From Centroscyllium fabricii (Eukaryota), in assembly GCA_051313645.2 (NCBI GenBank), contig JBNRSN020000004.1:254882001-254946000 (forward strand): DNA of 64,000 bases. The letters are read 5' to 3'. The notes under the pieces were generated by a model. It worked only from the letters and a program-made list of their open reading frames with translations. It ran no database searches and was not told the origin of the DNA. The position numbers were made by a program, and so were the translations under genes. Position 1 is the stretch's first letter; each line of letters starts with the position of its first letter. This document shows, one piece after another, positions 5,028-43,967 of the stretch.

Positions 5028-7119
5028 TCAGCCTCCCGATCTCTCCCGTCTCCAGCGGGTGTGATCGAAAAGGTGGGCGGGGGGCAGTGTTGATCCAGGC
5101 TGGGCTGTTGTAATTCCTCTTATTTTGGGGGATGATCCTGGGGCGGTGAGCGGGGGGGGGTGTCTGGGCGGGTCTCTTGAGTTACCAATGATCGGGGGGG
5201 TGGGGAGGTTTCGTCCTGGGGCGTGTCTGGGCTGGTCTCTTGGTTTACTAATGATCGGGGGGGTGGGGAGGTTGCGTCCTGTGGCGTGTCTGGGCTGATC
5301 TCTTAGGTTTTTAATGTTCGGGGGGGTGGGGAGGTTGTGTCCTAGGGCAGTGTCTTTGAGGTTCTTTGCGAAGACTCTCACTCTTTGTTTATTTAGGTGT
5401 ATTCCGTCGTAGAGGTCCCATGTGCCGATGGTTGGGTGGTGGGCCAGTTTGACGTTGGGGAGGGCGACACATTTTCTGGTGATCTCCATATTGGCGTGAT
5501 AGATCACGTAGGGTGGGGTGTCTGTTCTGGGCAGTAGGGTAGAGATCACGATCTTCGCCTTAGGGAACTCCTTGCTGGCCTTCTCTGCCATCCTTACTAT
5601 TGCTCCAGCAGTGTTCTGGCGTAGGGTGCAAAGGTCGTTCGTGCCTGTATGGATTACAAGGTATTGGGGGTTTCCAATAATGTCTTTGTTCAGGGTCCTC
5701 ATTGCCTGGTTCGTTGTGCTGCACCTTTTTGTCAGGACCCGGTGACCTGGGAACAGTCTATGGGGGATTAGAAACTTCCCGTTGGAGTCCGTCAGTAGGA
5801 CTGCCTGGGGAGCTGATTCTTCGGGCTGGGAGGCAGAAAGCTGGGCAGGGCTGAGATGGGAGTTGGTTGCTGGCTGTGTTTCTGGGGCAGGCTGTGTGGT
5901 GGTGGAGGGGTTCGGTGGAGCTGATTTGGGTGGTGGAGGGGTTTGGTGGAGCTGATTCTTTAGGCTGGTGGGCAGAAGGCTGGGTAACTTCCCGTTGGAG
6001 TCCGTCAGTAGGACTGCCTGGGGAGCTGATTCTTCGGACTGGGAGGCAGAAGGCTGGGCAGGGCTGAGATGGGGGTTGGTTGCTGGCTGTGTTTCTGGGG
6101 CAGGCTGTGTGGTGGTGGAGGGGTTCGGTGGAGCTGATTTGGGTGGTGGAGGGGTTTGGTGGAGCTGATTCTTTAGGCTGGTGGGCAGAGAGCTGGGTAT
6201 CACCGAGATGGGAGTTGGCTGTTGGCTGTGTTTCTGGGGCAGGCTGTGTGTTAGTGGGAGGGACCGGTGGGGGTGTGTTGGTGGACTGGGGGGGGGGGGG
6301 TAGGAGGGGTGTGGTGGTCTCAGGGGGCTGGGCAGCAGAAGTCTTTTTTTGTGTCTTTTTGGGGGCTTCTGGGTGGTTTTCCTTGATATCCTGAATCATT
6401 TTGAAGAGGACTCTTTCTCGCTTAGTTGTGTCATCCTTCATTTTGGCTATTTGGGAACGGAATGCACCGTTTTCTTGTCCCATTTCTTTCAGAATCTTTT
6501 TTGTCTCGGAGGTGGTCGTAGACATCTGTTCGAAATCCTTTTGCAGTTGTTTGAGGTGCTTAGCCTGCGCTTGTATGTGTTCTTCGAGGTTGAGCTCTAG
6601 TCGGGCCACGTTATCTTTCAGCTGAGTGTTTGAGTTTTGAGGTGTGAGGGGGGCAGTGACGGTCAGAGTATCCGTTGTGTCTGGTGGACTATCACTTTCA
6701 TCGTTGTCCTGGGGGGTATTGCTCCCTTTTTCGTGTACCTTCTTTTTTAGCTGGGGGAAGTTCTCTTCAAAGGAGTCCAGCTGTTCTGAGTTTCCCTGTA
6801 TCATGATCTTGCCATTATTATAGTAGGAAATGGTAAGGAGAGGATCATCTGTGTCCAGGGATTGATCTGCACATATTATCAGTCTGCCCCCATATCCGAT
6901 ACCTCTACTGAGGACATGTGGGTAGTTTTTGGTCATGGCGTCTTTCCAGAGGCGAACGTAATTTGTGCAGAATATTAGATTACTCTTCTTCCTACCCACT
7001 TTGCATGTGGCATAGTCAGCATAGAGGACATCTAGGTTTTCCTGGAGAACTTTGTCCTTATATTTATCTTTTGCTTTTATGGCTTTGACTTTTGGCGGGT
7101 ATGATATTTCCCGGCTCAT
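5028..7119 (-). pseudogene. LINE ORF1: N-terminal domain, coiled coil, Pro-rich linker and SGNH/GDSL esterase, frameshifted near 6150-6210
   Basis: Esterase blocks VLLTDSN, VIHTGTND, DGIHLN in 5028..6203; heptad-like region in 5758..7119; internal 213-bp duplication. Confidence 0.8.
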
Positions 7120-7842: not shown

Positions 7843-8440
7843 CGGGCGAAGGCCGCTGTTGGGCCGAGTCCCCGTTCTCGGTTGGGGCCGCTCACTGGTT
7901 TGGGGCCTTTTTTCGGCGAAGGCCTCTGTCGGGCGCGGTCCCCGTTCTCGGTTGGGGCCGCTGTCGGGCGAAGGCCGCTGTCGGGCCCGGTCCCCGTTCT
8001 CGGTTGGGGCCGCTGTCGGGCGAAGGCCTCTGTCGGGCCCGGTCCCCGTTCTCGGTTGGGGCCGCTGTCGGGCGAAGGCCTCTGTCGGGCCCGGTCCCCG
8101 TTCTCGGTTGGGGCCGCTGTCGGGCGAAGGCCTCTGTCGGGCCCGGTCCCCGTTCTCGGTTGGGGCCGCTGTCGGGCGAAGGCCTCTGTCGGGCCCGGTC
8201 CCCGTTCTCGGTTGGGGCCGCTGTCGGGCGAAGGCCTCTGTCGGGCCCGGTCCCCGTTCTCGGTTGGGGCCGCTGTCGGGCGGAGGTCGCTGTTCGGGCC
8301 CGGTCCCCGTTCTCGGTTGGGGCCGCTGTCGGGCGGAGGTCGCTGTTCGGGCCCGGTCCCCGTTCTCGGTTGGGGCCGCTGTCGGGCGGAGGTCGCTGTT
8401 CGGGCCCGGTCTCCGTTCTCGGTTGGGGCCGCTCTCTCGG
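7843..8440. repeat. GC-rich 52/53-bp minisatellite, ~11 copies, in the LINE 5' UTR
   Basis: Unit gggcccggtccccgttctcggttggggccgctgtcgggcgaaggcctctgtc; period 52 (8041 to 8093). Confidence 0.92.
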
Positions 8441-27460: not shown

Positions 27461-28814
27461 ATGGTAAATAGATGCAGTTCAAGCACATAGAATCTTACAG
27501 CACAGAAGTAGGCCATTCGGCCCATCGTGCCTGACCCGGCTCTTTAAAAGAGCTGTCCAAATTAGTATCACACCCCAACATTTTCCCCATAACCTTGCAA
27601 ATTAGTCCTCTTCCAGTACATGTCCCATTGCCTTTTGAAAGTTCCTATGGAATCTGATTCCATCATCCTTTCAGGTAGTGCGTTCCAGATCTTAACAACC
27701 CTCCATGTGAAAACAAGTCTCCTCATTTCCCTTCTAGTTCTTTTGCCAATTATTTTAAATCTGTGACCTTTGATTACTGATCCAGTTGCCAGAGGAAACA
27801 GTTTCTCACTACTTGCTCTATTAAACCCCTCATAATTTTGAATACCTCTGTTAGGTCTCCCCTTAGCTTCTCTAGGAGAACAATTGCAGTTTCTCCAATC
27901 TTTCCACAAAATTGAAGTCCCTCATCCCTGGTATCATCCTGGTAAACCTCCTATGTACCCTCTCTGGGGCCTTGACATCTTTCCTAAAGTGTGGTGCTCA
28001 GAATTGAACACAATACTCCAGCTGAGGCCTAACCAGAGATTTGTAAAGGTTTATCATAACTTCTTTGATTTTAATTCAATGGCCCTATTTACAAAGCTAA
28101 ATATTCCACAGGCTTTCTTCACTACCTTATCAACTTGCCCTGCCACCTTCAAAGATTTGTGAAAATGCACCCTCTGTTCTTGCACCCCCCTCAAAATAGT
28201 ACCATTTAGATTATACTGCCACTCACTGTTGTTCCTTCCAAAGTGCATCACTTCACACTTATCCACATTAAATTGCACCTGCCATGTGTTTGCCCATTTC
28301 ACCAGTCTGCCTATGTCCTCCTGAAGTATGCTACTATCCAATGATTTGTATCATCCGCAAACTTCAAAATTGTACTCCCTATACCCAAGTCCAGATCATT
28401 TATATATAACAAGAAAAGCAATGATCCTAATATCGATCCCAAGGGGACCCCACTGCATGGTTCTCTCCAGTCAGAAAAATATTCATTCACCACTATTCTC
28501 TGCCTCCTAAACCTTAGCCAAACACATAACCAAGTTATCACCAACCCTTTAATACCATGTGCTTCTAATTTCTGAATGAGTCTGTTAAGTAGTGCTTTAT
28601 TAAATGCCTTTTGAAAGTGTAGCGAGGTCGCTGACTTAATTAAAAGACGACTCGTAGTTACCATTAATACTAGGCTTTTAATTAATAAAGAATAGAGGTA
28701 TCTCTTCGGTAGATTCATACTGTAAAGGCAGGAATCGAATCAGACCACAACCTTTATAGTGCTCCACCTGGAGGGAGGAGTCGGAGGTGTGGCTGACCCG
28801 CTTCCAGCAACATA

Positions 28815-31800
28815 TCAGCACACAGGTATACAACAATGGTATCCCATATAAGGGATACCCAAATATGGGTTACCACATTCACCCCTTGTTAAAAACTTTG
28901 AGTCCGGGGGGGCGGGGTGAATGCCTTGTTGAAAACTTTGAGTCCAGGGGGGAGGGGGTGAAGACAGTGAACAGTTCACAATGAGTCTCTCCGGCGGCCG
29001 CGTCTGTCTTGCCGACCGCCGGGGTTCCGATGTTGGTTGTGATGGCCCCATGGCCGAATAGTCTGCCTCCGTCGTCGATGGTAGGTCGACTTGCTGGCCA
29101 GTCGGGGGAGCCGTGGCGGTGTTGCCGGCCGGAGCCAGGTCCCTGATGGACACGGTGTCCTCACGCCCGTCTGGGAACTGCACAAAAGCATATTGTGGGT
29201 TGGCGTGTAGGAGCTGTACCTGGTCCACCAGGGGGTCCGTCTTGTGGCCCCGAACGTGCCTTTTAAGAAACACCGGCCCAGGGGTCGTCAGCCATGGTGG
29301 GAGCGCCGTCCCCGAAGATGATCTCCTGCTGAAAGAGAAAACAAGGTCGTGCGGGGTGGCATTAGTAGCTGTACATAATAACGACCTAATAGAGTGCAAT
29401 GCGCCTGGGAGGACTGCCTGCCAGTGGGACACTGGAAGGCCTCTGGACTTGAGGGCCAGGGTGACCGCCTTCCAGATAATCCCATTCTCCCTTTCTACCT
29501 GGCCGTTCCCCCGGGGGTTGTAACTGGTCGTTCTGCTCGTGGCAACCCCTTTCTGGAGCAGGAACTGACGCAGTTCATCGCTCATGAACGATGACCCCCG
29601 GTCGCTATGGATGTAGCTGGGGAAACCGAAGATGGCGAACAGCGTGGTGAAGTGTTTGATCACCGTTGCGCTCGTCATGTCTGGGCAGGGGAAGGCGAAG
29701 GGGAAACGGGAGAACTCGTCCACTACCGTGAGGAAGTATGAGTTGCGGTCGGTGGAGGGAAGGGGGCCTTTGAAGTCTACGCTGAGGCGTTCAAAGGGGC
29801 GAGTGGCCTTAATGAGGTGCGCCGTGTCTGGCCGGAAAAAGTGGGGTTTGCACTCAGCGCAGACAGGGCAATCTCGGGTCATATCCTTGATCTCCGTGAT
29901 GGAGTAGGGGAGATTATTAGCTTTGACAAAATGGGCGAGTCTGGTGACACCCGGGTGGCAGAGGCGGTCGTGGAGGTCCTTCAGCCGGTCTAGCTGGGCA
30001 CTGGCGCACGTTCCCCTGGACAGTGCGTCCGGTGGTTCATTGAGTTTACCTGGTCGGTAAAGAATGTCATACTCGTAAGTCGAGAGTTCGATCCGCCACC
30101 GCATGATCTTGTCATTCTTGATTTTACCCCGTAGTTTATTGTTAAACATAAACGCCACCGACCGTTGGTCGGTGAGCAGGGTAAAACGCTTACCGGCCAG
30201 GTAATGACGCCAGTAGCGCACGGCCTCCACAATGGCCTGGGCCTCCTTTTCCACTGCTGAGTGGCGAGTTTCGGGTCCCTGTAAGGTGCGGGAGAAAAAC
30301 GCTACGGGCCTGCCTGCCTGATTCAGGGTGGCAGCAAGGGCAAAGTCCGAAGCGTCACTCTCCACCTGGAAAGGGATGGATTCATCAACAGCGTGCATGG
30401 TCGCCTTGATGATATCTCCTTTTATCTTTTCGAATGCCGTTTGAGCTTCTATAGAAAGAGGGAAGACGGCAGCCTTGAGGAGTGGTCTAGCCTTGTCTGC
30501 GAACTGCGGGACCCATTGTGCATAGTAGGAGAACAATCCTAGAGATCTCTTCAAGGCTTTGGGGTTGTGAGGTAGGGGCAGTTCCTGAAGGGGTCGTATA
30601 CGCTGTGGGTCGGGGCCAAGGACCCCGTTCTCCACCACATATCCGAGGATGGCGATCCGGGTTGTATTAAAGACACATTTGTCTTTGTTATACGTAAGGT
30701 CCAGCTTAGCCGCCGTGTCAAGAAATTTGGCTAGGTTGGCATCGTGGTCTTGCTGGTCGTGGCCGCAGATGGTCACGTTGTCCAGGTAGGGGAAAGTGGC
30801 CTGCAAGTCATTTTGATCAACCATACAGTCCATCTCCCGCTGGAACACTGACACTCCGTTGGTCACGCCAAAGGGGACCCGGAGGAAGTGGTAGAGCCGA
30901 CCGTTCGCCTCGAAGGCGGTGTAGGGGCGGTCAGCTCTCCGGATCGGGAGCTGGTGATACGCCGATTTAAGGTCGATCGTGGAGAACACCTTGTACTGGG
31001 CGATCTGATTGACCATTTCCGAGATGCGGGGAAGGGGGTAGGCGTCGAGCCCGGTGTAGCGGTTAATGGTCTGGCTGTAATCGATAACCATCCGATGTTT
31101 CTCGCCAGTCTTAACGACTACAACCTGGGCCCGCCAGGGGCTGGTGCTGGCTTCAATAATCCCCTCCTTTAGCATCCGCCCGACCTCCGACCTGATAAAC
31201 GTGCGGTCCCCCTCGCTGTACCGCCGACTCTTAGTGGCGATAGGTTTGCACTTCGGATCGAGGTTGGCGAACAGCGAGGGGGGATCGATTCTCAGGGTGG
31301 AGAGGCCGCAGGCCGGGGTCCGCTTTGGGGGGAGATTGTCCCGGCTACTGAGGGTGAGTGGGGGAAGGGTCCCGCCGAACTCCATTGTCACACTCCTGAA
31401 GTGGCACAGGAAGTCCAGACCTAGTAAGGCTGGGGCACACAACTGCTGGAGGGTATACAATTTAAAATTACGGTACACGCGTCCCTGGACGGTGAGCGTG
31501 ACGGAGCAGTAGCCGGTGACGTCCGCGGTGTGGGACTGTGAAGCTAATGAGACCTGGTAGTTAGTGGGCAGGACCTGCAGTCCGAAGCGCCGCACTGTAT
31601 TAGGGTTTATGAAGCTTTCGGTGCTGCCCGTGTCAAAAAGGCATTCAACCGTGTGATCGTTGATCTTGATTGGCCTTATGGAGTTAGACAGGGTGTGGGG
31701 ATTGTCCTGGCTAACTGTAGATCCGGTCGCCGCAGCCCCTGCCGCAGGGAGCTGCGCACAAAATGGCCACCCCCCTGGTTTGCACATGGAGGGGACCTGA

Positions 31801-33266
31801 CAAAATGGCCGCCCCGCACAAAATGGCTGCCCCCCACAAAATGGCCGCCCCCCTGGCTTGCACATGGAGGGGACCTGACAAAATGGCCGCCCCCCTGGCT
31901 TGCACAGGGGGGTGCCTGGGGGAAGACAAGATGGGGCTAACATCCCATTCACAGTACTGGCCTGTATCGAGTGACCTGAGGGAAGACAAAACGAGGTTAG
32001 TTCAGTTTGTGCTGGTTCTTTTGAGCCGCCAGTACTGGCCTGCATCGGGTGACCTGAGGGAAGACAAAACGAGGTTAGTTTAGTTCGTGCTGGTTCCTGC
32101 TGACACGGTGCCCGCAGCTCCCCGCTGTCCTGAGCCGCCGGCAGCTCCCGCTGTGCTGGCTCTGGCTGGATGGGAGCGGGTATCGAGGCTCTTGAGCCGC
32201 CGGCAGCTCCCGCTGTGCTGGCTCTGTCGGCGTTGGCTGGATGGGAGCGGGGATCGAGGCTCTTGAGCCGCCGGCAGCTCCCGCTGTGCTGGCTCTGTCG
32301 GCGTTGGCTGGATGGGAGCGGGGATCGAGGCTCTTGAGCCGCCGGCAGCTCCCGCTGTGCTGGCTCTGTCGGCGTTGGCTGGATGGGAGCGGGGATCGAG
32401 GCTCTTGAGCCGCCGGCAGCTCCCGCTGTGCTGGCTCGGTCGGTCGCGTCGGGATGGGAGCGGGGATCGAGGCTCTTGAGCCGCCGGCAGCTCCCGCTGT
32501 GCTGGCTCGGTCGGTCGCGTCGGGATGGGAGCGGGGATCGAGGCTCTTGAGCCGCCGGCAGCTCCCGCTGTGCTGGCTCGGTCGGTCGCCGTGCCGGCGG
32601 CGCTCCTAACTGGCCCGCAGTCGGCCGCGTTGTAGGATCTCGTCTGAGGCCGGTCGGTCGCCTCGGGATGGGGGAAGGGGGCACTCGCCGTTGGTGAGTA
32701 ATACTGCAATTGCAGCTTACCTGAGCCTCCTGCCCGTGCTGGTTGATTTCACAGGCTGTTTGCTGGATTTCACTGCAAATGCCGTTTGTCTGCTGGTTGA
32801 TTTCACAGGCTTTGTTGTTCCTTTTTGATGCTAGATTCGATCTGCAGAGCTTTGAAAAGTGCCCTTTCTTGGAACATTTGTCACAGGTTGCCGTCTTGGC
32901 TGGACACTTTGCCCTGGGGTGCAATCCTTTGCCGCAAAAATAGCATTGTCTATGCTTAGTGTCCGTGGTGGCCGTCGCGGCCCTGGTGGGGCTCTCAATC
33001 CGTGGCGCCTGTTGGGTCGCGGCCCAAACGTAGTACCTCTTGAGGGTCGCCACCGTTTCCACGTAGGTTGTATGTTTCTCAATGAGGGCGAAAACCCTGC
33101 CGGAGATGGTTGTTAGCAGTACTCGTAGTTTTTGCGTATCCGATTCAGCCCTGACGGCCGCCATATAGGCCTCTAGTGCTCCGAACCAGAGCTTGAAGGT
33201 GATCGGTGCCGCGGCCTCCCGGGGGCTAATGCTCAGCTCCTGAGGCCTTACCGTGCTGCTCTCCAT
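28815..33266 (-). CDS. Single Gag-Pol polyprotein, 1483 aa (short Gag, two zinc knuckles, repeat linker, protease, RT, RNase H, integrase)
   Basis: CYFCG..H...C and CDKCSKKGHFSKLC; LFDTGS; IDLKSAYHQ, VPFG, YLDN; ESDAS/VEKE/LTDQ; HHCC, VDFKGP, HSDRG, GQVEREN; uninterrupted. Confidence 0.93.
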   Translation of the reverse strand: MESSTVRPQELSISPREAAAPITFKLWFGALEAYMAAVRAESDTQKLRVLLTTISGRVFALIEKHTTYVETVATLKRYYVWAATQQAPRIESPTRAATATTDTKHRQCYFCGKGLHPRAKCPAKTATCDKCSKKGHFSKLCRSNLASKRNNKACEINQQTNGICSEIQQTACEINQHGQEAQVSCNCSITHQRRVPPSPIPRRPTGLRRDPTTRPTAGQLGAPPARRPTEPAQRELPAAQEPRSPLPSRRDRPSQHSGSCRRLKSLDPRSHPDATDRASTAGAAGGSRASIPAPIQPTPTEPAQRELPAAQEPRSPLPSSQRRQSQHSGSCRRLKSLDPRSHPANADRASTAGAAGGSRASIPAPIQPEPAQRELPAAQDSGELRAPCQQEPARTKLTSFCLPSGHPMQASTGGSKEPAQTELTSFCLPSGHSIQASTVNGMLAPSCLPPGTPLCKPGGRPFCQVPSMCKPGGRPFCGGQPFCAGRPFCQVPSMCKPGGWPFCAQLPAAGAAATGSTVSQDNPHTLSNSIRPIKINDHTVECLFDTGSTESFINPNTVRRFGLQVLPTNYQVSLASQSHTADVTGYCSVTLTVQGRVYRNFKLYTLQQLCAPALLGLDFLCHFRSVTMEFGGTLPPLTLSSRDNLPPKRTPACGLSTLRIDPPSLFANLDPKCKPIATKSRRYSEGDRTFIRSEVGRMLKEGIIEASTSPWRAQVVVVKTGEKHRMVIDYSQTINRYTGLDAYPLPRISEMVNQIAQYKVFSTIDLKSAYHQLPIRRADRPYTAFEANGRLYHFLRVPFGVTNGVSVFQREMDCMVDQNDLQATFPYLDNVTICGHDQQDHDANLAKFLDTAAKLDLTYNKDKCVFNTTRIAILGYVVENGVLGPDPQRIRPLQELPLPHNPKALKRSLGLFSYYAQWVPQFADKARPLLKAAVFPLSIEAQTAFEKIKGDIIKATMHAVDESIPFQVESDASDFALAATLNQAGRPVAFFSRTLQGPETRHSAVEKEAQAIVEAVRYWRHYLAGKRFTLLTDQRSVAFMFNNKLRGKIKNDKIMRWRIELSTYEYDILYRPGKLNEPPDALSRGTCASAQLDRLKDLHDRLCHPGVTRLAHFVKANNLPYSITEIKDMTRDCPVCAECKPHFFRPDTAHLIKATRPFERLSVDFKGPLPSTDRNSYFLTVVDEFSRFPFAFPCPDMTSATVIKHFTTLFAIFGFPSYIHSDRGSSFMSDELRQFLLQKGVATSRTTSYNPRGNGQVERENGIIWKAVTLALKSRGLPVSHWQAVLPGALHSIRSLLCTATNATPHDLVFSFSRRSSSGTALPPWLTTPGPVFLKRHVRGHKTDPLVDQVQLLHANPQYAFVQFPDGREDTVSIRDLAPAGNTATAPPTGQQVDLPSTTEADYSAMGPSQPTSEPRRSARQTRPPERLIVNCSLSSPPPPWTQSFQQGIHPAPPDSKFLTRGECGNPYLGIPYMGYHCCIPVC
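32127..32590. repeat. 71-bp tandem array (~6.5 copies) inside the gag-pol ORF
   Basis: ctcttgagcc recurs at 32189, 32260, 32331, 32402, 32473, 32544; one shortened 62-bp unit near 32127. Confidence 0.95.
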
Positions 33267-33754
33267 TGTAAAAATTATTAATTAAAATTGTAGCGAGGTC
33301 GCTGACTTAATTAAAAGATGACTCGTAGTTACCATTAATACTAGGCTTTTAATTAATAAAGAATAGAGGTATCTCTTCGGTAGATTCATACTGTAAAGGC
33401 AGGAATCGAATCAGACCACAACCTTTATAGTGCTCCACCTGGAGGGAGGAGTCGGAGGTGTGGCTGACCCGCTTCCAGCAACATATCAGCACACAGGTAT
33501 ACAACAATGGTATCCCATATAAGGGATACCCAAATATGGGTTACCACAGAAAGTAATATATATAACACCTACTGCACTATCTTCATCAACCATCGCTGTT
33601 ACTTCATCAAATAAATTAATCAGGTTAGTCAGACATGATTTGCCATTAACAAATCTGTGTTGGTTCTCTCTTATTAACCCATGCTTCTACAAGTGAGAAT
33701 TCACTTTGTCCTTGACAATGGTCTCTAGTAGTTATTCCACTACTGACATTAGAC

Positions 33755-39403: not shown

Positions 39404-42400
39404 TGTAGTGCATGCAGGCCTGAAGAACCACGCTAGAGACAGTGAGATCAGATAACACTCATTTAATAGTTTACACTGCAAGGGCCAGGTAGCGAAGAGA
39501 CTGAGCTACCTGGAACAGGCATATTTAAAGGGCCCGTGGTTGGTGACGTCACTGCCGGATGTCCCGGTGACATCATCACGCCGGAAGTCGCGGTGACGTC
39601 ATCACGCCGCCCAGCGGGCGGGGCCGTGTCCCGCAGTACTCCCGAGGCGGATTCGTTGGTCTTGGTGGGCGTGTCGCCACACAGCTCCCCCCCAGAATCT
39701 GTGAGGGAGAATAAAGTTAAAAATAAAAAAAGGGAGAATAAAATAAAAATAAAAAAATGGAGCATAAAAGGTGAGTCTCAGGCGAGGCGTTGCGGTGGCC
39801 GGATGATGCGGTCGGCACGTGTCGTGCGCTGCTCCTTGTTCTGCGTGGGAGTGTGGGCGAGCTTTGGTGCGGTAGGGCGTCCGCGTTTTGGTGGCTGCGC
39901 GGGGACTGTTGTCTCACCCGCCATTACATGTGCCGGTTTGAGCCGGTCAATCGAGACAGTCTCCGTTCTGTTGCCCATTTTGATTTGGAATGTCTTAGGT
40001 CCCTCTGTACGGTCCATCGTACGGTGGCTGTAGTGGTGTTCGATGTGCGTCATGGCGGACAAACCCATATTTGGCGTTCTTGATGCCGTCTGGAACACGT
40101 GCTGCCGGCTCTCCGTGCCGGGCCACCGGGAGTGGTTTGAACGCCCCTGCCTGATTGTTAAATTCCTTGAGGCAGTGGTCGGCTGACCAGGGGGCGTTGG
40201 GTTCTGCGACGAACTCGCCTGGTACGGTTAGGGGTTGGCCATAGACGAGTTCCGCCGCTGAGGCGTGCAGGTCTTCCTTGGCCGCTGAGCGTAGGCCGAG
40301 CATTACCCAGGGCAGGCGGTCGGTCCAGGTTGCGTCCTTAAGGCTGGCCCGCAGGGAAGCTTTGATGGAGCGGTGGAACCGTTCGCAGAGGCCATTGGCC
40401 TGTGGCTGGTAGGCGGTGGTTCGGTGCAGGGTTGCCCCGAGGTCGTGGGCGATGGTCGCCCATAGGGTTGAGGTAAATTGGGGGCCCCTGTCCGACGTGA
40501 TGTCGGTGGATACGCCGAAACGTGCGACCCAGGTGGCGATGAAGGCCCTGGCCAGGTCCGCGGTGGTGGTAGCGGTGAGTGGGACCGCTTCTGGCCAGCG
40601 GGTGCTGCGGTCGACCATTGTCATGACGTGTGTATGTCCCCGTGATGGCGGTAGTGGTCCGACCAGGTCGATGTGGACGTGGCTGAAGCGTTTAGCTGGA
40701 ATGGCGAACGTTTCTAGTGGTGCCTTGATGTGCTTGTGCACCTTGGCGCGCTGGCAGGCAGTGCAGGCGTTGGTCCAGGCGCGGACATCCTTGCACAGGC
40801 CGTGCCAAACGAAACGTGCCGAAATCAGCTTAGTGGACGCGCGGACGCCGGGGTGGGACAGGTCATGGAGGGTCTGGAAGATGTGTCGCCTCCATGCGTG
40901 GGGGACGACGGGTCTGGGCTGCGGGAGGGAGACGTCGCAGCGGACCGCCGTGGCTGTGGGCCCGTGTGCTACGGTGGCCAAGTGCAGGCCGGGGATGTTG
41001 GTAGCTGGGTCGAGCAGATCAGGGTCGGTCAGTTGGTCGGCCGCCAGTTTGGCGTAGTCGACGGCCGTTTGTACGGAGTTGATGGTGGGGCGTGACAGGC
41101 AGTCAGCAACCACGTTGTCGCGGCCGGCGATGTGCTGTATGTCGGTGGTAAACTCCAACACAGCCGCGAGCTGGAGCTGCTGCCTGGCCGACCAGGGTTC
41201 GGCAATCGTAGCCATTGCTGACACGAGTGGCTTGTGATCTACGAAGGCTGTAAAATGGCGGCCCTCTAGGAGGAAGCGGAAGTGGCGCACTGCGAGGTAG
41301 AGAGCGAGTAGCTCCCTATCGAAGGCACTGTACTTGACCTCCGGGGGCCGGAGTTGCTGGCTGAAAAAGGCCAGCGGTTGCCAGGAGTTGCCTGTCCACT
41401 GCTCGTAGACTGCTCCGACGGCGTAGTCGGAGGCGTCGGTGGTGAGGGCCACTCTGGCGTTGGGCCTAGGGTGGGCTAGGAGCGTGGCATTGGCCAGGGC
41501 GGTTTTGGTTGCGGTGAAGGCGGTGGTGGCTTCGGCCGTCCACTCGACCGCAGCCTTGTTGGACTGCCCGCGGGTGGCCTGATAGAGGGGTGCCATGAGA
41601 GCGGCTGCTCCTGGGATGAAGCGGTTATAAAAATTAACCATCCCAAGGAATTCCTGCAGCCCCTTGATGAAGTGCGGGCGGGGTAATTCCTGGACCGCCT
41701 GCACCTTGGAGGGCAGGGGTATGGCCCCGGTCTGGGAAATGCGGTGGCCGAGGAAGTCGATCATCTCGAGGCCGAACCGACATTTGGAGGGGCTTAATAT
41801 AAGGCCGTGTTCGACCAGGCGTTTGAACAGGGTCCTGAGATGGAGGAGGTGTTCCTGGGGGGAGGTGCTGGCCATGAGGATGTCGTCCAGGTAGACGAAT
41901 GTGAACTGCAAGTCCCGTAGGACTGAGTCCATGAGGCGTTGGAAGGCCTGGGCCGCGTTTTTAAGTCCGAAGGGCATTCGGAGAAACTCGAAAAGGCCGA
42001 AAGGGGTAATGACGGCTGTCTTAGGGACGTCCGCCGGGTGCACTGGTACCTGGTGGTAGCCCCGTACCAGGTCGATCTTTGAAAAAATCGTGCAGCCGGC
42101 TAGCCTTGCTGAGAAGTCTTGGATGTGGGGTACGGGGTACCTGTCTGGGGTGGTGGCGTTGTTGAGGCGGCTGGAGTCTCCGCAGGGGCGCAAGCCACCG
42201 CCGGGTTTGGGGGCGATGTGGAGGGGAGAGGCCCAGGGGCTGCTGGAGCGGCGGATTATGCCGAGTTGTTCCATGATGTGGAACTCGGTACGCGCGATCT
42301 CCAGCTTGGCCGGGTCCAGCCTGCGTGCGTGGGCATGGACTGGAGGGCCTGTGGTGGTGATGTGATGCTCCACCCCATGCTTGGCCGTGCGGGCTGTGAA

Positions 42401-43967
42401 GGTGGGGTTGGTGAGGGCTGGGAACTCCGCGAGGAGCGTGCCGTACGTGTCGGAGTTCCGGGCTCGGCAGTGGGGCGCTGTGTGGGCCTGGTGTGCCGGC
42501 CCTCTGGAGCATGGGATGGTCGACATGTTATGGATGTCGACCAGGCGGCGCTGGGTCACGTCGACCAGTAGACCGTGGGCGCAAAGAAAATCAGCCCCGA
42601 GGTGGGGTAGTTTGACTTGGGCTGTGATGAAGTCCCACTGGTATGTGTGGCCTGCTAGCTTGATGGTGAGCTTGCGGGTGCCGTACGTAACTATCTCGGA
42701 GCCATTTGCGGCTTCGAGTGGTGGGCCTTGGGTGCCTTGCTTGGTTTCTGCGGGGGAGGCTGGCACAATGCTGTGCTGCGCGCCTGTGTCGCAGAGGAAG
42801 AGGAGGCCTGAGCCGTTGTCCGTGACGAAGAGCAGTGCTCCAGAGCGGCCTACGGACATGGTGGGGCTTGAGCTGGGTTGGGGTTTGAAGGTGCAGGGCT
42901 GGACGCAGCGCTGCGCTTTAGCTTCAAACCTGGTGTGGTAGTAACACCAGCCGGGGCCTGTTGTGCGCGGCTTTTTGCGGGTGCGCACTGGCCTGGGTTC
43001 AGACTTGGGGCCGGACCTGGGGTGCGCGTAGTAGTGCTCCGGTGCCGTGGCAGTGGGCTCGCACGTGGCGGCTCGGGAGCGCTCGGCCCTCATCAGCTTG
43101 TCGGCCTCCTCAGCCAGTTGCTCTTTACTGTAGTGGTAGGGGATCGTCAGAGCCGGTCTGACGGAGGGAGGCAGTTTGAGGAGGAACAAGGTGCGCTTAA
43201 TGGTGGCCGGGTCGCAATTGAGCGCTTCCATTTGGGCCCAGAGGTCCGATGGGTCTGCGTCCCCGAGTTCGTGGCGTTTAATGAGCTGGCAGTCGCGCTC
43301 AAACTGGGAGGGGATGAATTTCTTTAGCAGCGCGGCCTTAAGGAATTCGTACCTGCCAGCGGTTGGTTCGTGCTGTATCATTGGCCACATTCGGTCGACC
43401 GTGGTCTGTGATAGGGCCGCGAAGAGCAGGTTGTATCGATCGTCCCCCTGTACGCCATGGATGCGGTAGGTGTTCTCCGTGCTGAGGAACCAGGCCGCTG
43501 GACGTAGTTCCCAGAACTCTGGCAGGGTTGGTATTTGGCCGGAGTTCTGGCCCAGTCTGTGAATTCGCGCTGTTTGGCTCCCTGCTGGCATGTTGGTGGG
43601 GAGTGTACTGAGGCAGCTTGGCCCTCAGTCCTGCAGCAACTGCTTCATTATGTTCCCTTGGCAGTCGTTCCAAGTATTGAGGTCACCACTGTAGTGCATG
43701 CAGGCCTGAAGAACCACGCTAGAGACAGTGAGATCGGATAACACTCATTTAATAGTTTACACTGCAAGGGCCAGGTAGCGAAGAGACTGAGCTACCGGGA
43801 ACAGGCATATTTAAAGGGCCTGCGGTTGGTGACATCACTGCCGGATGTCCCGGTGACGTCATCACGCCGGAAGTCGTGGTGACGTCATCACGCCGCCCGG
43901 CGGGCTGAGCCGTGTCCCGCAGTACTCCCGAGGCGGATTCGTTGGTCTTGGTGGGCGTGTCGCCACA
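39404..43967 (-). mobile_element. Ty3/Gypsy LTR retrotransposon, CsRn1-like
   Basis: 278-bp LTRs 39404-39681 and 43690-43967 (~10 mismatches by eye); 4-bp TSD agag/agat; PBS TGGTGACC (tRNA-Trp type); G-rich polypurine tract. Confidence 0.95.
39995..43591 (-). CDS. Gag-Pol polyprotein, 1198 aa, with a frameshift near the integrase C-terminus
   Basis: Gag LPEFW...PAAWF, CYYH..F...A..C..PC knuckle; LCDTGA; IDLVRGYHQ, MPFG, YLDD; TTDAS; HIDLVGP, TSDRG, NGLCER; tail continues in 39778..40098. Confidence 0.85.
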   Translation of the reverse strand: MPAGSQTARIHRLGQNSGQIPTLPEFWELRPAAWFLSTENTYRIHGVQGDDRYNLLFAALSQTTVDRMWPMIQHEPTAGRYEFLKAALLKKFIPSQFERDCQLIKRHELGDADPSDLWAQMEALNCDPATIKRTLFLLKLPPSVRPALTIPYHYSKEQLAEEADKLMRAERSRAATCEPTATAPEHYYAHPRSGPKSEPRPVRTRKKPRTTGPGWCYYHTRFEAKAQRCVQPCTFKPQPSSSPTMSVGRSGALLFVTDNGSGLLFLCDTGAQHSIVPASPAETKQGTQGPPLEAANGSEIVTYGTRKLTIKLAGHTYQWDFITAQVKLPHLGADFLCAHGLLVDVTQRRLVDIHNMSTIPCSRGPAHQAHTAPHCRARNSDTYGTLLAEFPALTNPTFTARTAKHGVEHHITTTGPPVHAHARRLDPAKLEIARTEFHIMEQLGIIRRSSSPWASPLHIAPKPGGGLRPCGDSSRLNNATTPDRYPVPHIQDFSARLAGCTIFSKIDLVRGYHQVPVHPADVPKTAVITPFGLFEFLRMPFGLKNAAQAFQRLMDSVLRDLQFTFVYLDDILMASTSPQEHLLHLRTLFKRLVEHGLILSPSKCRFGLEMIDFLGHRISQTGAIPLPSKVQAVQELPRPHFIKGLQEFLGMVNFYNRFIPGAAALMAPLYQATRGQSNKAAVEWTAEATTAFTATKTALANATLLAHPRPNARVALTTDASDYAVGAVYEQWTGNSWQPLAFFSQQLRPPEVKYSAFDRELLALYLAVRHFRFLLEGRHFTAFVDHKPLVSAMATIAEPWSARQQLQLAAVLEFTTDIQHIAGRDNVVADCLSRPTINSVQTAVDYAKLAADQLTDPDLLDPATNIPGLHLATVAHGPTATAVRCDVSLPQPRPVVPHAWRRHIFQTLHDLSHPGVRASTKLISARFVWHGLCKDVRAWTNACTACQRAKVHKHIKAPLETFAIPAKRFSHVHIDLVGPLPPSRGHTHVMTMVDRSTRWPEAVPLTATTTADLARAFIATWVARFGVSTDITSDRGPQFTSTLWATIAHDLGATLHRTTAYQPQANGLCERFHRSIKASLRASLKDATWTDRLPWVMLGLRSAAKEDLHASAAELVYGQPLTVPGEFVAEPNAPWSADHCLKEFNNQAGAFKPLPVARHGEPAARVPDGIKNAKYGFVRHDAHRTPLQPPYDGPYRGT

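Follow-up and report, generated by a model that had tools for sequence, protein, structure and literature searches.

The 71-nt tandem array in the Gag-Pol frame of a very young Ty3/gypsy retrotransposon is most likely a mutational burden on the element and not a switch of its reading frame. The element lies in the window, i.e., the whole 64,000-nt stretch of Centroscyllium fabricii DNA analysed here, and our reading, to which we give a probability of roughly 0.7, is that it belongs to a young family with a shortened linker repeat, a lost capsid C-terminal domain, frameshifted copies that are likely dead ends, and a capsid that would be borrowed. Whole units would be lost or gained by template switching, presumably during reverse transcription. 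The family would make its own nucleocapsid and Pol, with Pol probably needed in cis, and would take capsid protein from a relative, presumably one with full Gag.

The original prediction described a 71-bp unit, not a multiple of three, that is stop-free on the minus strand and leads the protein twice through three peptides. The unit map and translation confirm this, with the correction that unit length is not uniform: five 71-nt units (minus-strand starts 32579, 32508, 32437, 32366, and 32295) are followed by a 62-nt sixth unit from 32224, 9 nt shorter, and by a partial unit from 32162. TRF reports 32163-32585 with a period of 71, 6.0 copies, and 98% matches. All three minus-strand frames are open across the array, and the other two terminate about 50 nt past it, at 32080-32082, the stop of the alternative frame that had been predicted to end there, and at 32075-32077. 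The stop-free state in all three frames is not remarkable, as 37% of 20,000 shuffles of the unit reach it by composition alone; it is also forced when at least three 71-nt units sit in a retained ORF.

The host element has the TG...CA LTRs, target-site duplication, and PR-RT-RH-IN domain order of Ty3/gypsy elements, and its array lies between the zinc knuckles and the protease (Table 1). The RT catalytic motif is YLDN (about 30810-30825, minus strand), a reading also seen in homologues from sharks, rays, and invertebrates, and the top named homologues of the element come from sharks and rays. Excerpts of one source support the existence of a Cigr-1 clade (PMC6238403). The primer-site stretch and its complement in the LTR pair in both the MFE and centroid folds (overall z 0.2), and the 13-nt motif is kept in 97/100, 35/40, and 14/16 copies of three copy groups; self-priming is a possible meaning of the complementarity. 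A 40-nt duplication at 28884-28962 (minus strand) copies the purine tract upstream of the 3' LTR.

Table 1. Features of the retrotransposon that carries the 71-nt array (positions in the window)
Feature	Position	Strand	Remarks
LTR retrotransposon	28618-33548	-	carrier of the 71-nt array; very young Ty3/gypsy
5' LTR	33289..33548	-	260 bp, TG...CA; 1 mismatch vs 3' LTR
3' LTR	28618..28877	-	260 bp
Target-site duplication, 5 bp	33549-33553 and 28613-28617
13-nt primer-site position	33275..33287	-	complementary to LTR-internal 33347-33359, not to a tRNA end
Single Gag-Pol ORF	28815..33266	-	1483 aa; ends inside 3' LTR
Capsid N-terminal half	33036..33266	-	without detectable constraint
Deletion junction	33029..33035	-	324 nt (108 codons) in-frame loss; 7-nt microhomology
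Two zinc knuckles (nucleocapsid)	32838..32945	-	under purifying selection
71-nt tandem array	32130..32585	-	5 x 71, 62, partial; Pro/Ala/Arg-rich linker
Stop codons, two alternative frames	32075..32082	-
In-frame linker duplication, 78 nt	31952..32096	-
In-frame linker repeats, 42/18 nt	31758..31906	-
Aspartic protease	31407..31670	-	Pfam PF13975
Reverse transcriptase + RNase H	30075..31112	-	Pfam PF00078, PF17917, PF17919; YLDN motif
Integrase core	29514..29804	-	Pfam PF00665

Copies were collected with a pattern just 5' of the array, which has 140 exact matches in the genome; 100 of these were listed, and all 100 were retrieved. One copy in the set is that of the window, and another has 72-nt units. 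The set also contains a tandem pair (L146/L147) with a common LTR and a duplicated pair (L080/L081) with the same flanks, as in a segmental duplicate. Among the copies listed, LTR pairs are identical in 73/93. The array is not private to the window copy, and scorable copies carry from 5 to 13 units, so the predicted variation in unit number is real. Past the array, 77 of the 100 listed copies are in frame, 19 are out of frame, and four are unscorable; pol is therefore in frame in 77/96 scorable copies, well above the one in three expected by chance (p 5e-21), as had also been predicted. Dead-end mutation with selection for Pol would, however, lead to the same expectations.

Scored against the three in-frame types that are most frequent, the 19 out-of-frame copies comprise 10 one-unit losses, 6 two-unit losses, 2 gains, and 1 one-nt insertion. 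Their ORFs are 352-531 aa long and end just past the array, which bears out the prediction that a change of one or two units truncates the product, and pol is otherwise open in 16/19 of them. Steps of three units are not the sole in-frame route that they had been supposed to be, as in-frame arrays have 5, 7, 8, 9, or 11 units, several of them via small compensating changes. An ORF of over 1400 aa is present in 58/77 in-frame copies. Frame loss affects 17/63 pure 71-nt arrays versus 1/30 mixed-length arrays (three copies left out), with a p of 0.01 that is optimistic, since the mixed-length arrays are partly a single lineage. This excess in pure arrays fits the homology-driven loss known for retroviral reverse transcriptase.

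In a tree of 88 copies built with the array excluded, the out-of-frame copies are scattered tips among in-frame ones. Alleles exclusive to out-of-frame copies make up 1 of 36 shared alleles, against 0.98 in shuffles (two duplicates dropped), in a test whose power is low given the 36 shared alleles and the star-like tree. Out-of-frame copies are not older than in-frame ones (2.2 vs 2.6 private variants, p 0.68), and one of them is identical to the window copy outside the array. Both of these observations, together with the ratio of 16 losses to 2 gains, speak against a reading in which units change mainly after insertion, whether through minisatellite slippage in the germ line, through gene conversion, or in the assembly, with the in-frame excess reflecting no more than in-frame founders. 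GC-rich minisatellites do mutate in place, and public contigs cover the unit sequence with none spanning the array, both of which favor this reading; we nevertheless regard it as rather unlikely.

The unit also occurs as a variant with one extra G, which has 1220 matches. Of the 43 listed loci of this 72-nt type, we sampled the first 40. Every unit spacing in these 40 copies (189/189) is divisible by three, and the arrays hold 3 to 8 units; 34/36 scorable copies are in frame, and 25/40 have an ORF of over 1400 aa. The 71-nt set forms one clade nested in the 72-nt subfamily (support 0.92); a pure-72 array and a mixed one branch at the base of this clade. LTR divergence is 0.09% in the 71-nt lineage versus 0.29% in the 72-nt subfamily. 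Both alternative-frame stops are already present in 72-nt copies and thus predate the 71-nt unit. From these comparisons, the 71-nt array is most likely a one-base-shorter, frame-breaking variant of an ordinary 72-nt linker repeat. Among the loci listed for the first 380 Mb of contig 1, 43 are of the 72-nt type and 3 of the 71-nt type. The 72-nt subfamily is frame-neutral, larger, and older; no switch was thus needed for the family to multiply.

The Gag of the window element is itself incomplete. Its zinc knuckles begin at residue 108, versus about 214 (median) in 68/71 scorable homologues, and a related full-Gag family of the same genome has 324 extra nt at this point, flanked by 7-nt direct repeats. 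The deletion removes residues about 80-187 of full Gag, i.e., the whole capsid C-terminal domain, so the two-domain capsid of an autonomous Ty3/gypsy element is lacking here. Splicing was considered as the origin of the deletion and rejected, the ends being a 7-nt direct repeat and not splice sites. Pfam did not recognise this capsid, and Foldseek returned nothing under E 0.001, with capsids alone at E 0.01 and above. The full-Gag model (pLDDT 87.5) aligns to Copia, dArc1, PNMA2, and retroviral capsids. Its residues about 82-177 match isolated capsid C-terminal domains, namely those of MLV (Z 10.1, rmsd 2.3, 82 aligned), PEG10 (Z 10.0), Ty1 (Z 8.6), and also MOAP1; for helical folds such Z values are moderate, although capsids fill all the top rows.

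The deletion junction is present in 100/100 copies of the 71-nt set and 39/40 of the 72-nt set, or 139/140 together. Contig 1 was sampled at 55 consecutive copies, of which 21 have full Gag, 32 have the junction, and 2 have another deletion of the same region, and a pattern with 2435 genome matches is likewise a mixture of full-Gag and deleted copies. The junction is also spanned by one low-depth contig of another organism, which weakly suggests a deletion older than Centroscyllium fabricii. Copies L313, L318, and L273 have independent in-frame deletions of the same capsid region, and capsid loss thus arose more than once. Older deleted copies (L310, L335, and L337) have parts that are alternately nearer the window family or the full-Gag family and are possibly recombinants.

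To measure selection, real copies were compared pairwise with 13 full-Gag long-frame copies, and the excess on the window side was counted. The capsid remnant has 20.5 replacement versus 6.4 silent changes (pN/pS 1.03), the zinc knuckles 4.0 versus 7.9 (0.15), and Pol 32 versus 50 (0.20); the neutral pN/pS baseline in these data is about 0.5-0.6, and the remnant differs from Pol with p 2e-9. Four 72-nt copies gave 0.76-0.96 for the remnant, 0.07-0.11 for the knuckles, and 0.17-0.20 for Pol. In full-Gag copies, the capsid N-terminal half has a ratio of 0.40, from only 7 silent and 9 replacement variants and with a singleton baseline of 0.4-0.6. By these substitution counts, the capsid remnant drifts while the knuckles and Pol are conserved. 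The family thus has a Gag lesion that is common to its multiplying copies together with an intact pol under selection, as expected of a Gag-defective, Pol-competent element.

These results bear directly on the proposal that the 71-nt unit was retained as an adaptive copy-number switch, in which some copies make Gag only and so set the Gag:Pol ratio. In about 20% of copies the frame does close past the array, mostly with an otherwise open pol, the 71-nt lineage is the youngest, and in-frame states at 5, 8, and 11 units exist. But 108 codons of Gag are missing, so no full capsid protein can come from the supposed Gag-only copies; the capsid remnant that their short product retains is drifting, no out-of-frame lineage was found, and a particle built from half a capsid, knuckles, and repeat tail is unlikely. 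The 7- and 9-unit in-frame arrays, the age of the stops, and the more numerous 72-nt copies that have no switch all point the same way, and we consider such a switch very improbable. Of the marks of phase variation, high-rate frame toggling is present, as the pure arrays show, but two functional states that are inherited or reversible are not apparent, with no out-of-frame clade in a comparison of low power and an off-state protein that lacks the capsid domain.

The likeliest mechanism is borrowing of capsid in trans, probably from a full-Gag relative. The full-Gag family of this genome, the candidate donor, has the same primer-site motif as the window family, but it is older and its LTRs differ from those of the window element by 13%. 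LTR divergence is 1.5% in unselected full-Gag copies and 0.6% in long-frame ones, and no fresh burst was seen in this family. Gag is open in 15/21 copies and pol in 7/20; none of 19 copies checked has a whole ORF from the start codon, and open frames of at least 1437 aa occur in 14 of the top 150 full-Gag matches. In the full-Gag copies L309-L348, frameshifts cluster at a C run just past the zinc knuckles and at linker G runs, which leaves many Gag-only frames. Selective retention of Gag in old full-Gag copies was considered and rejected, since 15/21 versus 7/20 fits neutral length-dependent decay (a hand estimate).

A doubtful but not negligible pair of readings is that the two families form a split retrotransposon, with the Gag:Pol ratio set between them, or that copying proceeds without a capsid shell. 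In the first, the young family would give nucleocapsid and Pol, and older full-Gag copies broken past Gag would give capsid. In the second, which we find quite unlikely when taken singly, the nucleocapsid, a disordered linker of 400 residues, and Pol would suffice, and the array would still be a burden. Such copying would suit a deleted lineage that has gained about 8% silent pol divergence since the split, that is younger than every sampled full-Gag group, and that outnumbers full-Gag copies 34 to 21 in the 55 consecutive copies; the linker is also nine times the homologue median. However, long repetitive linkers occur in shark and ray full-Gag homologues and in the parent family too, open-frame full-Gag copies with the same primer-site motif are present, and Gag particle formation is called mandatory for LTR retrotransposition in excerpts of PMC3977881. 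Borrowing, probably from a full-Gag relative, remains our preferred mechanism.

Dependence of this kind has likenesses elsewhere. The barley copia element BARE-2 is reportedly Gag-defective and lives on the Gag of a sister family, having lost its gag start and not, as here, one capsid domain. In rice, the active copia element Tos17 has an intact pol and no usable Gag, with Lullaby as its proposed Gag donor, according to excerpts of PMC3977881. As described there, Tos17 is likewise Pol-competent and Gag-defective and would depend on the particle of a relative whose primer site is nearly identical to its own; it is present in two copies, however, and nothing of its gag is left. The family studied here is Ty3/gypsy with many hundreds of copies. 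Of its Gag, the capsid C-terminal domain alone is gone, and the zinc knuckles, still fused to Pol, remain under selection. The mouse IAP 1delta1 element, as far as the portions consulted describe it, similarly has an in-frame internal deletion and a cis-acting fusion ORF and yields more new insertions than its full-length parent (PMC6466679, PMC7411935); unlike the present family, in which all Pol domains are conserved, 1delta1 lacks part of pol and depends on Gag and Pol supplied in trans.

Template switching deletes direct repeats during retroviral reverse transcription, per excerpts of PMC6395001, and the loss-biased unit spectrum and the 7-nt microhomology fit this; unlike in the retroviral studies excerpted, the loss here is seen in a natural population, filtered by reading frame. 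The Gag-only elements TR-GAG and RLG_Quinta (PMC13570524, PMC11302176, in part) are what the predicted Gag-only copies would resemble, but they are described as retaining Gag and forming lineages, whereas the out-of-frame copies here encode half of the capsid and sit apart from one another at the tips of the tree. Our search of the openly accessible literature found no frame-switching array in a retrotransposon and no such capsid-deleted family. The present family is distinct from the compared systems in having lost exactly one capsid domain while keeping the knuckles and all of Pol.

Copies of four kinds, with full Gag, with the capsid deletion, with the 72-nt array, and with the 71-nt array, line up in a single vertebrate genome as a dated natural series. 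The series would show which retrotransposon functions have to act in cis: knuckles and Pol are under selection, and the capsid remnant is not. The 71-nt array would keep its own tally of the repeats lost each time the element is copied, with a loss in about one round in four for pure arrays. An element may, moreover, have identical LTRs and a Gag-Pol frame that is long and open and still not be autonomous.

Elsewhere in the window, a second Ty3/gypsy element of another clade, which we take to be CsRn1-like, lies at 39778-43624 (minus strand) and has a DUF7041 Gag and a 1209-aa ORF followed by a second frame. A G-skewed stretch is possibly another element; it holds a 52-nt array (about 10 copies) and a 213-nt duplication, at 7915-8433 and 5773-6199.
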